Shown here: positions 5,539 through 64,000 of the stretch, in pieces
How positions within the stretch are numbered: position 1 is the first letter of the stretch
How the letters are laid out: each line of letters starts with the position of its first letter
Assembly (NCBI GenBank): GCA_947444925.1
Contig: CANFBW010000002.1
Span: 64,396-128,395 of the forward strand
Length of the DNA stretch: 64,000 bases
Direction of reading: 5' to 3'
Source of the DNA: Flavobacteriales bacterium
GTDB taxonomy: Bacteria > Bacteroidota > Bacteroidia > Flavobacteriales_C > GCA-002722245
Notes under the pieces: generated by a model
Seen by the model: only the letters and a program-made list of their open reading frames with translations
Database searches by the model: none
Told to the model about the DNA's origin: nothing
Program-made: the position numbers and the translations under genes

Positions 5539-5901
5539 TTGTTGGTAAATACTATTGCCCTGAAAGCAACGCAAGCGTCATTCATCCGTATTATTAGCAC
5601 AGTAGTTGTTTGTATTGAATATACACTTGATGAAACTCTAAAATACATTTGTATGGAAGAATTTAATTTGAATTACCAGCACCGATACCCGAGAATTGAA
5701 TTCAGCAATGGTGTCAAAATGTTTGGCGTACTTTGGGCCATATACAACAACAAGAAGCGTAAAATGGATTATTATTTTGCCGATTCTAGTGAAATGCGCA
5801 AGCTCAATCAAAGCAATCCTGCTATTTTGTTGGAAGGTATCCGCAAACTGCATCATGTATTCAGAAAAGATGAAATTGTCGCTGTAGAATACCTCAATTA
5901 A
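5539..5901 (+). CDS. Hypothetical protein
   Basis: 120-aa ORF (possibly shorter, from MEEFNLNYQ...). No motif recognised. Confidence 0.3.
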   Translation: MLVNTIALKATQASFIRIISTVVVCIEYTLDETLKYICMEEFNLNYQHRYPRIEFSNGVKMFGVLWAIYNNKKRKMDYYFADSSEMRKLNQSNPAILLEGIRKLHHVFRKDEIVAVEYLN

Positions 5902-5978
5902 GCGGTTAAATACTAATATATGTTAAGGCTTATTGACTTGTGCGGCTTTCTGTTACTTTTGTAACTTAGGCTCAACTT

Positions 5979-7508
5979 GTGAAAAAGCAATACATTAAAA
6001 CCTTATTTCTTGTGATGGCTTTTGCGCTCGTGGGATTGAGCGCCATTCAAATTTATTGGGTGCACAATGCTATTGGTATCAAAGAGCAGCAATTTCAAGA
6101 AAATGTAGGGAGAGCCCTTTACAATGTAGTTTACAAAGCTGAAAAAATTGAGGCCGCACATTACATTAAGATTCACCGCTTGAGTGAATTTGCTGTTGGC
6201 GGAAGAATTGGGCAAAATCAAAGCAAAGATATTGGTTTAGATAGTTCATGCTGCCATTTCCCTTCACACGCAAACAGCAAGGATGACCTTTCTGAATATG
6301 TGACTGGTGAAGGTAAATTACTCAAACGCAGTCGTTCAGCACTTCTTGCTCAATTTGAGCAGGAGATCAATACTACATTCGATCGAGCGGGTATTGACGA
6401 GATTAAGTCGGGAATGGTAAGTGATATCATTAACGATATGATGAACATGCAAAAATCGAGAGTGGAAGAGCGCATCGATCCAGGAATCATTAATCTATTA
6501 TTGGAAGAAGAGTTGTTGAGGGAGGGTCTGAACACTGAGTTTTATTTTGGTGTATTGTCGCAAACGCAGGGAGTAGAGCTGAAGCAGAAGGCTGCGTCTG
6601 ATGAAAAACTTTTGTTAACGCCGTATAAGATCAAAATGTTTCCCGGTGAATTCTCCGTATATCCAAGTTATTTAAGCGTTTATTTCCCCAGGGAAAGAGG
6701 TTTTTTGTGGAAATCGATGATTGGTGTAATGTCTATTTCTGCAATTTTTATAGCCGCTATTATTTTTGTTTTTTGGTACAGTCTGTCTATCATTTTAAAC
6801 CAAAAGAAATTGGCCATTGTAAAAAATGATTTCATCAACAACATGACACATGAACTGAAAACACCAATATCTACAATTTCATTGGCCTGTGAGGTATTGA
6901 AAGACCGCAGTATTCCAAAGGATCAGGAACGTTTAGACCATTATGTGGAAGTCATCAATGAAGAGAATAAACGACTCGGTATTTTGGTGGAAAACGTATT
7001 GCAGTCGGCCGTTTGGGATAGACCTGATTTTAAGCTCAATAAAATTGAGTTGAATGTGCATGAACTTATTCAGCAAGTAGTGGATAGAAGTCACGTACAA
7101 TTGGATGCCAAAAATGGGCAAATTGAAACAACTTTATTGGCCACTGCCTCTTTGTTGGACGTGGACAGAATACATTTCACCAATGTGTTATATAATTTGA
7201 TTGACAATGCTATAAAATACTGTAAAGACAAACCTGTCATACATTTGAGCACGCGTGATGCAGAGGGAGGGATCGTGATTCAGGTGAGTGACAATGGCAT
7301 AGGGATTAGCAAGGAGAATCAGAAAAAAATATTTGAAAAATTATATCGTGTTCCCACGGGAAACTTGCATGATGTAAAAGGGTTTGGACTCGGCTTGAGC
7401 TACGTAAAGGCAATTATTGATCAACATGGTGGAGAAATTCAAGTCAGGAGTCAGTTAAATCAAGGAACAACTTTTAGCATATTCATTCCAAAAAAATCAG
7501 AAATATGA
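5979..7508 (+). CDS. Sensor histidine kinase (HisKA + HATPase_c), membrane-anchored
   Basis: H-box MTHELKTPISTIS. N/G boxes DNGIGISKENQKKIFEKLYRV...GFGLGLSYVK. N-terminal TM segments. GTG start at 5979; its stop overlaps the downstream response-regulator start at 7505-7508. Confidence 0.85.
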   Translation: MKKQYIKTLFLVMAFALVGLSAIQIYWVHNAIGIKEQQFQENVGRALYNVVYKAEKIEAAHYIKIHRLSEFAVGGRIGQNQSKDIGLDSSCCHFPSHANSKDDLSEYVTGEGKLLKRSRSALLAQFEQEINTTFDRAGIDEIKSGMVSDIINDMMNMQKSRVEERIDPGIINLLLEEELLREGLNTEFYFGVLSQTQGVELKQKAASDEKLLLTPYKIKMFPGEFSVYPSYLSVYFPRERGFLWKSMIGVMSISAIFIAAIIFVFWYSLSIILNQKKLAIVKNDFINNMTHELKTPISTISLACEVLKDRSIPKDQERLDHYVEVINEENKRLGILVENVLQSAVWDRPDFKLNKIELNVHELIQQVVDRSHVQLDAKNGQIETTLLATASLLDVDRIHFTNVLYNLIDNAIKYCKDKPVIHLSTRDAEGGIVIQVSDNGIGISKENQKKIFEKLYRVPTGNLHDVKGFGLGLSYVKAIIDQHGGEIQVRSQLNQGTTFSIFIPKKSEI

Positions 7509-17123: not shown

Positions 17124-17208
17124 GGAGAGGTGTCAGAGTGGCCGAACGTGCAAGCTTGGAAAGTTTGTGTACCGCAAGGTACCGCGGGTTCGAATCCCGC
17201 CTTCTCCG
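17124..17208 (+). tRNA. tRNA-Ser (anticodon GGA), class II with long variable arm
   Basis: Acceptor stem ggagagg/cctctcc, D-arm gtcagagtggccgaa, anticodon stem caagc/gtttg with loop ttGGAaa, long variable arm, T-arm gggttcgaatccc. CCA not encoded. Confidence 0.85.
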
Positions 17209-29904: not shown

Positions 29905-30333
29905 ATGATAATTCAAATTTCTGGAATACTATTATTTGTAATTTTTGTCCTGATTTCGGGCATTCACTTTTACTGGGCGTTCGGCGGCAAATGGGGCGTT
30001 GATGCAGCATTGCCTAGCAATGGTGAAGGAGAACGCGTGTTGAAGCCTCGACAAATTGACACCTTTGCTGTTGCTGCCGTGTTTGCTGGAATTGGTGTTT
30101 TTTATTTGGTGATGGGTACTGTAGTGCTTATTGATTTGCCTTTATGGATGCCCAAGTATTTGGGGTGGATTTTTCCTTTTGTTTTTTTAATCAGAGCGGT
30201 CGGTGACTTTAAATATTTGGGAATTTTTAAAAAAGAAAAGAGGAGTTTATTTGCCCAGCTGGACACTAAATATTATTCTCCTCTTTGTTTGTTCATCACT
30301 TTTTTAGCAGTGCTTGTTCAAGTTTTTCGATGA
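29905..30333 (+). CDS. DUF3995-like small membrane protein
   Basis: N-terminus HFYWAFGGKWGVDAALP is characteristic. 4 TM helices. Confidence 0.5.
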   Translation: MIIQISGILLFVIFVLISGIHFYWAFGGKWGVDAALPSNGEGERVLKPRQIDTFAVAAVFAGIGVFYLVMGTVVLIDLPLWMPKYLGWIFPFVFLIRAVGDFKYLGIFKKEKRSLFAQLDTKYYSPLCLFITFLAVLVQVFR

Positions 30334-30341
30334 ATAATTTT

Positions 30342-30554
30342 ATGATTATCCGCAATTGTACCAGTCCTCTCACAGAAGTGGCGATAGATCCTTTAAAGAC
30401 CGAAACTTTGTTTCTCCTCTTAATCTCAAATCTCAGGAAGACAATCATTCGCGAAAAACCTATGTGGAAAATCGTTCGCATTTGTCCTCCTGAGGTACTC
30501 CGAAGGATCTATCGCCCTAGACATAAATCAACTGGTACAATTGCGGATAATCAT
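30342..30554 (+). ncRNA. Unclassified structured intergenic element, copy 1 (candidate sRNA or MITE-like repeat)
   Basis: Perfect 21-bp terminal inverted repeat 30342-30362/30534-30554. Inner 14-bp stem 30380-30393/30503-30516. Conserved hairpin gaaac-ttt-gtttc. Second inner stem ctcaggaagaca/tgtcctcctgag around a 39-nt loop. Conserved core shared with 63429-63604. Confidence 0.4.
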
Positions 30555-30833
30555 ATAATTTTTAACGAATTCATGGTTAATGCTGCCCTTGTTGCCATTT
30601 CTCTTAATTTAAAGGAGGCGCGCACAAGGAGAAATCAATTGCTCTATGATTCGACTGAAGCGTCGCGTGAATGGCGCTAAATTTAGCGTTTGATAACGAT
30701 GGGGTCGTGCGGTCGGTTCCTTTAAATTGGAATTAGCCATATGGAGAATTTGCTTCCATATGATTTCAAGAGCAAGTGAAGGTCATATCCAATGTGTCGC
30801 CGAATCGCACAGAATGAAGAAATTTGTGGTCAA

Positions 30834-31640
30834 TTATTTTGCGACTGCAAGGAAATTGATGGTGATAAAGATTTCGTAGGTTTCTTTGTACACGGGCATT
30901 TCAAATAATCCGTTTTTCAAAACTCTGTAGATGGTGTAGTTGTCTTTTAAGAGGTAGAAAAAATCTTGAAAATAGGTTCTTGAATCAATGTTGCAGCCAC
31001 CAAATTCGAATTGAATAAAGTTTATTTTTTTGTCAGAGATCATTTTTTTTGCACCCTTCAAAGCCTCAAACTCATGCCCTTCAATGTCAAGTTTTAAAAA
31101 GTGAATTCTGTCGATGTTGTTTTTGGCGCAGTATGCGTCTACCGTCGATAATTTAATTTCTTCAGTATTGTCAAAAGCAATTCCAAAGTGATCTAACTTG
31201 CGGTGGTAAACCGAAGCCATACCTGATCCGTCGGAATTTGAGTAAAGTAACTGTGTGTTTTCAACATCACTTAAACCTAAATTATTTGAGATGAGATTGT
31301 GCACATGTTTAGTGTTTTTTAAAAAGTCGTTGTAAGTTATTACAGAAGGCTCGAAGGAGTGAATGTGTGCATTTGTATTAAATACTTTAGAAAGTTCATT
31401 GCAGTATTGTCCTATGTTGGCACCAACGTCAAAGATGGTGATTGAGGGCTCTTTTTTTAAAGCTGCAGCAACATGTTTCATTGCAAAAATCTCGCCGCCA
31501 TTTTCTAAGTCTCCACCGTTGCCGTAATTCATGTTACTCAAGGTGATGCTGTTGATGGTTTCCCAAAATTTTTGATCTTTTGTTTTAAGAGACAATCGAT
31601 ACAGGATGGACAATATTGCTTTTTTTATGAAATTTTTCAT
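30834..31640 (-). CDS. FkbM-family SAM-dependent methyltransferase
   Basis: FDVGANIGQY motif (Methyltransf_21). Confidence 0.7.
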   Translation of the reverse strand: MKNFIKKAILSILYRLSLKTKDQKFWETINSITLSNMNYGNGGDLENGGEIFAMKHVAAALKKEPSITIFDVGANIGQYCNELSKVFNTNAHIHSFEPSVITYNDFLKNTKHVHNLISNNLGLSDVENTQLLYSNSDGSGMASVYHRKLDHFGIAFDNTEEIKLSTVDAYCAKNNIDRIHFLKLDIEGHEFEALKGAKKMISDKKINFIQFEFGGCNIDSRTYFQDFFYLLKDNYTIYRVLKNGLFEMPVYKETYEIFITINFLAVAK

Positions 31641-63313: not shown

Positions 63314-63337
63314 TTAAAATTGATATATTGAATAAGA

Positions 63338-63367
63338 TCCCCACTGAATTTCAGTGGGGATTTTTAT
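63338..63367 (+). terminator. Rho-independent terminator of the aconitase gene
   Basis: tccccactga-att-tcagtgggga followed by T5. Confidence 0.6.
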
Positions 63368-63428
63368 TTACTTTTAGTTTGTTGGAGGATGAAAGGCTTT
63401 TTGAAAAGCGATGTGAATAATAAAATAA

Positions 63429-63604
63429 ATGATTGTCCGCAATCGTAACCGTTGTGTGCCGAAATTGGCGATAGATACTTCAAAGACCGAAACTTCGTTT
63501 CTCCTCTTAGGCTCAAATCTCAGGAAGACAAATGTAACCGATTACCAACAAAAGTTTTTTGACAATGGTTGTCTTCCTGAGGTACTCCGAAGGATCTATC
63601 GCCC
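63429..63604 (+). ncRNA. Unclassified structured intergenic element, copy 2
   Basis: Shares with 30342-30517: 5' box atgattRtccgcaatYgtaMc, ggcgatagat, aaagaccgaaacttYgtttctcctctta, ctcaaatctcaggaagaca, 39-nt variable loop, tgtcYtcctgaggtactccgaaggatctatcgccc. Confidence 0.4.
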
Positions 63605-63942
63605 CTCCGCCTCACCTAGCGTTCTTTTCGCTAAGTGATGTTTCCACTCTCAAAGCCTGAGGCTTATTTTCTGTTGACTAGATGAGGCTTCGCCCATAAG
63701 TGTTCGAAACCTTAATTAGTGAAAATTGGCTTAGCGAAGAGAACGTGAAGCCAAGTGTGTACTGCGGCGCTTATTCTGATGCTATAGATGGTGCAGTGCT
63801 GCGTAAGTTACACTTGCACAATAAATGCTTTTTGGAATTGCATTGTTCAAATATTTGCCTATCTTAGAAACAGAGACGCCAGTCTCCAGGGAATTTTCTT
63901 TACTCTTCTTAGTGTTTTTTTTATTTATTTAAACTAATGACT

Positions 63943-64000
63943 ATGAAGACGAATGCCTTTATTAAATTGACTTTTGCTGTGCTTTTGTGTAGTGCTTTTT
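63943..64000 (+). CDS. 5' end of a secreted-protein gene (signal peptide), truncated by window end
   Basis: MKTNAFIKLTFAVLLCSAF. Confidence 0.3.
   Translation, partial: MKTNAFIKLTFAVLLCSAF

Follow-up and report, generated by a model that had tools for sequence, protein, structure and literature searches.

A 213-bp non-coding element of an uncultured freshwater Bacteroidota lineage is very probably a MITE with IS1595-family ends

The 213-bp element described here is, at a probability that we put at about 0.93, a non-coding MITE carrying the ends of a group of IS1595-family ISs that is widespread in Bacteroidota. It lies in the window, i.e. the whole stretch of 64 kb that was analysed, and its host is an uncultured freshwater Bacteroidota lineage. 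Our reading rests on an 8-bp duplication on both sides of the element, on the coexistence of empty and occupied alleles, and on ends that are common to transposase-encoding IS1595-family elements, and it is strongly supported by them. Genome-wide copy number apart, every testable feature of a MITE was found. An earlier note had described the element as a candidate structured sRNA or MITE; the MITE part of that proposal stands on the duplication, the alleles and the IS1595 ends, and the sRNA part found no support, given the lack of any Rfam match, the lack of compensatory changes among the copies, and the fold-back of 41 out of 42 MITEs with these ends among the matches listed.

Inverted-repeat searching returned the coordinates and the perfect 21-bp terminal inverted repeats that the earlier note had given (Table 1). 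The exact complement of ATGATTATCCGCAATTGTACC (30342-30362) is found at 30534-30554, pairing reaches 24 bp with the adjoining AGT/ACT, and with the A/T flanks included the inverted repeat amounts to 33 nt at 94% (30333-30365 / 30531-30563). The 21-mer, allowing up to three mismatches, has three matches in the window against 0.00 expected from window shuffles, so that the repeats are far beyond chance. The left terminal repeat is the presumed end for transposase binding and cleavage. The nested internal stems of the earlier description were also recovered, as a perfect 14-bp stem and, further in, as arms at 30432-30444 and 30482-30494 found by inverted-repeat search; the loop reported as 39 nt measures 37 nt between 13-nt arms and 39 nt between arms of 12 nt, and the gaaac-ttt-gtttc hairpin is present in the minimum-free-energy fold of the element. 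The convergent DUF3995 and FkbM genes on either side were borne out by matches to PF13160 and PF05050. At 213 bp and with no transposase coding capacity, the element is well within the length of a MITE (below about 500 bp), and tblastn of an intact IS1595-family transposase with the same ends (from L023, see below) against the 64-kb window gave no significant match. The window also carries genes for proteins with a T9SS tail and for TonB-dependent receptors, from which we take the host to be a member of the Bacteroidota.

Table 1. Positions in the window of the element, its parts, its second copy and the neighbouring genes
Feature	Position	Strand	Sequence or size	Remarks
DUF3995 gene (PF13160)	29905-30333	+		Element directly 3' of its stop codon
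Left target-site duplication	30334-30341		ATAATTTT, 8 bp	Directly after TGA stop of DUF3995 gene
MITE (copy 1)	30342-30554		213 bp	Perfect 21-bp terminal inverted repeats and nested internal stems
Left terminal inverted repeat	30342-30365	+	ATGATTATCCGCAATTGTACC then AGT	Inverted-repeat search
Left arm of perfect internal stem	30380-30393		GGCGATAGATCCTT, 14 bp	Inverted-repeat search; kept in copy 2 and L086
Segment with gaaac-ttt-gtttc hairpin	30394-30431		38 nt	Three-copy alignment and fold
Innermost stem and loop	30432-30494		13-nt arms, 37-nt loop	One A/C mismatch in the arms
Right arm of perfect internal stem	30503-30516		AAGGATCTATCGCC, 14 bp	Inverted-repeat search
Right terminal inverted repeat	30531-30554	-	ACT then GGTACAATTGCGGATAATCAT	Inverted-repeat search
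Right target-site duplication	30555-30562		ATAATTTT, 8 bp	Sequence and allele alignment
FkbM-type methyltransferase gene (Methyltransf_21, PF05050)	30834-31640	-		Converges on DUF3995 gene
Copy 2	63429-63603	+		Left terminal repeat 63429-63449 (3 mismatches) and conserved core 63467-63603

The 8-bp direct repeat ATAATTTT that lies on both sides of the element had been overlooked in the earlier note. We compared it across ten metagenome places that encode an identical DUF3995 protein, drawn from independent samples and assemblers, by aligning the junctions. The occupied allele, identical to the window, occurs in L003 and L004 as well as in the window itself, and two further contigs (L008, L009) end inside the element. 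In L001, L002 and L005 the site is empty and holds a single ATAATTTT (...CGATGA ATAATTTT TAACG...), as expected if the 8 bp were duplicated on insertion, and the intergenic gap of occupied and empty contigs differs by exactly 221 bp, i.e. 213 + 8. A third, deleted allele, ATAATCATATAATTTT, was found in three independent assemblies (L006, ~690-705; L007, ~1110-1125; L010, ~709-724), where it leaves eight extra bases relative to the empty site (...CGATGA ATAATCAT ATAATTTT TAACG...); it corresponds to the loss of 213 bp between an ATAAT pentamer of the left duplication and another ATAAT within the right terminal repeat. Since the flanks of all these alleles are 99.2-100% identical to the window, the three alleles are variants within one population, and their presence gives the presence/absence polymorphism of a MITE. 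The element was inserted recently and its site remains polymorphic in the source population, although the empty allele could be the product of precise excision instead of the ancestral state. The deletion is most likely the result of replication slippage across the hairpin, i.e. a 'nearly precise excision'; it could conceivably be a footprint made by a transposase. The same alleles bear on the 131-aa ORF that overlaps the element, which the earlier note had taken to be probably spurious. The ORF has no NCBIfam match, an ATG start gives a version of 112 aa whose first base is also that of the element, and alleles without the element have ORFs of 35 or 45 aa in its place. These results support the earlier view, and we regard the overlapping ORF as spurious.

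The link to the IS1595 family comes from other elements with the same ends. A metagenome scan with a degenerate form of the terminal repeat gave at least 120 stretches, a large number of which lie where a contig ends, and the pairing of inverted matches among those listed yielded 58 unique bounded elements, of which 47 measure 69-339 bp and 11 measure 1.4-4.5 kb; two elements of about 1.0 kb each (L023 and L122) were bounded at looser stringency. Among the matches listed, most of the long elements encode IS1595-family transposases, and the same ends surround such genes in L023, L122, L034, L069, L082 and others. These transposases contain the DDE_Tnp_IS1595 domain and the N-terminal zinc ribbon that define the family, with Pfam E-values of 2e-20 and 9e-18 for PF12762 and of 2e-6 and 7e-8 for PF12760, and with NCBIfam scores for NF033547 of 194-206 bits against a cutoff of 75. 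L023 is a compact IS of 997 bp with an intact transposase of 313 aa, while L122, from a freshwater lake metagenome, is an IS of 1005 bp with a frameshifted transposase, whose ends agree with those of the window element in 23 of 25 positions. Among the matches listed, 22 of the 58 elements are flanked by direct repeats identical at 8/8 positions, with a shift of up to 1 nt in either direction allowed, against 0.56% in a control that took left and right flanks from different elements, and the flanks of the same 58 are 88% A+T. Flanking duplications of 8 bp are usual for IS1595-family members (PMC8101967). The exact 21-mer was also found in genomes of Prevotella, Cyclobacteriaceae, Algoriphagus, Chryseobacterium and Ignavibacteria, and a literature search for the terminal-repeat sequence found no paper. 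The target duplication and the homology of the ends to an IS mark the element as mobilised by a transposase, which speaks against another class of palindromic repeat (a REP/BIME-like element, an integron attC site or a retron non-coding RNA), even though a long imperfect palindrome with a variable centre in an intergenic position would fit such repeats. The neighbouring genes encode a DUF3995 protein and an FkbM methyltransferase, so that no integrase, reverse transcriptase or RAYT-like gene (RAYT being the REP-associated tyrosine transposase) adjoins the element. REP elements are about 35 bp long and attC sites about 60-140 bp with R/L boxes, sizes that 213 bp with perfect 21-bp ends does not fit. 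We have rejected these three candidates on these grounds and regard them as hardly credible.

The scan also brought up larger elements with the same ends. Several IS1595-family elements from the rumen carry passenger genes (L034, 458-2768; L069, 517-2699; L130, 11-3184; L121, 250-4028; L082, 118-4635; L136, 678-2983). The passengers encode Bro-N domain proteins, membrane-like proteins lacking annotation and an N6 DNA methylase with a type I S-subunit specificity domain, the last of these in L082 and L121. Three elements of 1.5-1.7 kb (L019, 414-1994; L060, 7695-9222; L014, 2380-4060) have the same terminal repeats around a KilA-N or Bro-N gene only; as they contain no transposase, they are cargo-only non-autonomous elements, intermediate between MITE and IS. 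The terminal repeat further occurs in the viral contigs L164 (IMG/VR UViG_3300037454_000255), L165 and L166. In L164 it bounds a 2.3-kb element (416-2720) with a transposase-sized ORF of 315 aa, the predicted N-terminus of which is like that of the other transposases, and with an ORF of 289 aa that appears to resemble the Bro-N passengers. One 8-kb rumen contig (L104) holds three MITEs of about 301 bp with these ends (543-845, 5798-6098, 6401-6701), two of them about 600 bp apart with near-identical left flanks.

The earlier note had labelled the element 'copy 1', implying a further copy, and a second is indeed present in the window (Table 1). The core of copy 2 is nearly identical to that of copy 1 and its 37-nt loop is unrelated; it has no recognisable right terminal repeat or target duplication. 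A weak terminal-repeat-like stretch at ~63807-63826 was considered as its right end and rejected, having no matching target duplication and being unpaired in the fold. Copy 2 is positioned just after the terminator-like hairpin of an aconitase gene and is present and identical in 7/7 contigs retrieved via that gene; it is also carried by scaffold_14, in which the copy 1 site is empty; therefore copy 2 is old and fixed and copy 1 is recent. Directly after the core of copy 2, and upstream of a GH18 gene with a T9SS tail, are about 220 bp of unique and strongly self-pairing sequence (63604-63830; 25-nt arms, 63620-63644 / 63721-63745), which match nothing in Rfam and show no similarity to any fetched locus; this stretch could be a second insertion, which would have moved the right end of copy 2 away, or it could be a leader of the downstream gene. 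The third copy of the core, L086, comes from another locus and another metagenome, is 183 bp long and has its own 8-bp duplication, TTAATAAT. It adjoins a stop codon in a convergent intergenic region and has the same loop as copy 1. The 38-nt hairpin segment of copy 1 is replaced in L086 by the 8-nt CGGAATAC, which makes the left arm of L086 a perfect complement of its right arm, and because of this replacement we regard 30394-30431 of copy 1 as an indel in the left arm that is not required. Three copies of the core were thus found, two in the 64-kb window and L086. A BLAST search with the core against more than 150 fetched loci gave matches to L086, to the two window copies and to contigs allelic to them, and to nothing else, and the interior of the element is therefore untraceable to the subterminal sequence of any full-length IS examined; a 20-mer core probe, ACTCCGAAGGATCTATCGCC, gave 0 matches in 185,579 species-representative genomes, and genome loci retrieved by the terminal repeat had no similarity to the core. 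The earlier note had held that dozens of identical copies with target-site duplications would make the element a plain MITE, an outcome that has in effect been reached, though with three copies of the core and not dozens.

The fold of the element is very stable, with z-scores of -12.0 on the + strand and -12.7 on the - strand. Such a low folding energy, together with a second copy that keeps the stems while its loop differs, would be compatible with an independent structured sRNA gene in which the terminal repeats form the closing helix, and the lack of a match to any known RNA family would be compatible with a new one. The earlier statement that the element belongs to no nameable RNA family held: Rfam gave no match at E ≤ 10 on 30200-30700, and only chance-level matches at E ≤ 10 around copy 2 (63320-63960). 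Across the whole window, the sole match at the gathering threshold is a tRNA gene (17124-17208, 42.2 bits). Folding, however, is shared by the whole group. With the 25-nt ends removed, 41/42 MITEs with these ends, among the matches listed, fold with z < -3 relative to dinucleotide shuffles, with a median interior z of -6.7 and a value of -6.9 for the window copy; the three MITEs on the single rumen contig have the most extreme z-scores, -14 to -18. The sampled interiors of other such MITEs are unrelated in sequence, so that fold-back is a general trait of these MITEs, of which the window copy is typical. The nested stems do not mark a particular RNA, and nothing points to a dedicated RNA gene. 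The covariation check proposed in the earlier note came out negative, as the alignment of the three copies, a very small sample, contains no compensatory and no double changes; in the 14-bp stem, an A to C change in L086 and a C to A change in copy 2 are both uncompensated, and one substitution in copy 2 restores pairing at an A/C mismatch. Moreover, L086 lacks a 30-nt hairpin segment, and a scan for promoter and terminator consensus sequences, which is sigma-70 based and poorly suited to Bacteroidota, scored nothing at the element above shuffle expectation. An sRNA gene would also have to account for the 8-bp target duplication, for the empty-site alleles and for a 'closing helix' that is the end sequence of transposase-encoding IS1595-family elements, and we consider it very improbable. 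The fold-back interiors suggest that these MITEs originate when one end is duplicated in inverted orientation, or else that the family favours a hairpin; they might reflect a requirement of IS1595-type transposition, or the birth of the MITE by such a duplication.

Another possibility is that the MITE has also been co-opted. Its hairpin would act on the flanking genes at the RNA level, by terminating transcription, by stabilising mRNA 3' ends or by serving as a target of RNase III, and the core would be kept for that role. The positions of the copies would agree with this, as copy 1 and L086 both adjoin stop codons in convergent intergenic regions and the copy that follows the aconitase terminator-like hairpin is fixed in the population, and so would the stable fold on both strands. 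Furthermore, copies 1 and 2 differ at 3/21 positions of the terminal repeat and are identical over 30/30 positions in part of the core. For a MITE it is unusual that the core should be more conserved than the terminal repeat, and this leaves some room for constraint on the core. Against co-option, the insertion is polymorphic and can be dispensed with, as the circulating empty and deleted alleles show; the preference for A+T-rich targets seen in the flanks accounts for the location beside stop codons; no terminator-like site was scored at the element; the stem changes are uncompensated among the three copies; and fold-back is general among MITEs with the same ends and differing interiors. Because the site is dispensable in the population, an effect on the 3' ends of neighbouring transcripts is a minor rival to the MITE reading, and we consider it unlikely. 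Similarly doubtful is the broader idea that the conserved core (GGCGATAGATCCTT ... CTCAGGAAGACAA / loop / TTGTCCTCCTGAG ... AAGGATCTATCGCC) works as a hairpin module that transposition has carried to the ends of genes in this freshwater lineage of Bacteroidota. If this were true, the core could be a portable bidirectional terminator or an RNA-stability element with a swappable loop.

For the element as a MITE, we propose the following series of steps. An IS1595-family DDE transposase with a zinc ribbon, encoded elsewhere in the genome or population, would bind both ends over 21-24 bp and insert the element at an A+T-rich target via an 8-bp staggered cut, the repair of which would give rise to the ATAATTTT duplication. 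The hairpin would then promote slippage deletions. What we infer from the data is that the element is mobilised in trans, which transposase is active and where it is encoded, and how the deletion came about; the autonomous partner is deduced from elements in other samples.

MITEs are very numerous in Bacteroidota (bioRxiv 10.1101/2024.01.18.576219), and these findings leave the understanding of transposable elements unchanged. They document a natural example of an IS1595-family MITE site that independent metagenomes of a single population show occupied, empty or with a nearly precise deletion. They also document a type of terminal repeat that is common to Bacteroidota from rumen Prevotella to freshwater Cyclobacteriaceae and that is found at the ends of compact ISs, of ISs with cargo and of many MITEs shaped as hairpins. 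In annotation, masking as a MITE is appropriate for the element, and neither the 112-aa nor the 131-aa ORF should be called a gene.

The closest named IS is ISBbi1, whose end, CTGATTCTCCGCAAACACACC, shares 15/21 bases with the window end, with the common pattern xTGATTxTCCGCAA...ACC. Like the window element, the IS1595-family and ISBbi1-like ISs of Bacteroidota have 8-bp duplications at A+T-rich targets (PMC8101967), and the transposases that accompany the same ends match NF033547, PF12762 and PF12760, as the IS1595 family does. Unlike these ISs, which measure about 1 kb, the window element is without a transposase and measures 213 bp. The ISBbi1 transposase is 44.7% identical to a transposase that uses the window-type end, and because the transposases are only ~45% identical, the autonomous partner would be a different, apparently unnamed IS1595-family IS. 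An IS1595-derived MITE is known from Haloquadratum walsbyi, where it is related to ISHwa6 and has 165 bp, 25-bp inverted repeats and 8-bp direct repeats (PMC3852290). Likened by description, both elements are short and non-coding, have ends of ~21-25 bp and an 8-bp duplication and derive from the IS1595 family; the hosts differ, being an archaeon for the H. walsbyi MITE and a member of the Bacteroidota for the window element. The Correia elements of Neisseria, RUP of Streptococcus and ERIC are, as the window element is, intergenic sequences of 100-300 bp with terminal repeats and strong fold-back over the whole length, and these hairpin-forming families can affect neighbouring transcripts, but their ends, their target duplications (for example TA for Correia) and their parent IS families are other than those of the window element. 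Finally, the 'precise' and 'nearly precise' excision of Tn10 and Tn5 proceeds by transposase-independent slippage across inverted repeats. The nearly precise excision follows the same pattern as ATAATCATATAATTTT, in which the ATAAT repeats are brought together by the hairpin; the deletion described here was seen as natural alleles in metagenomes, not as measured events.
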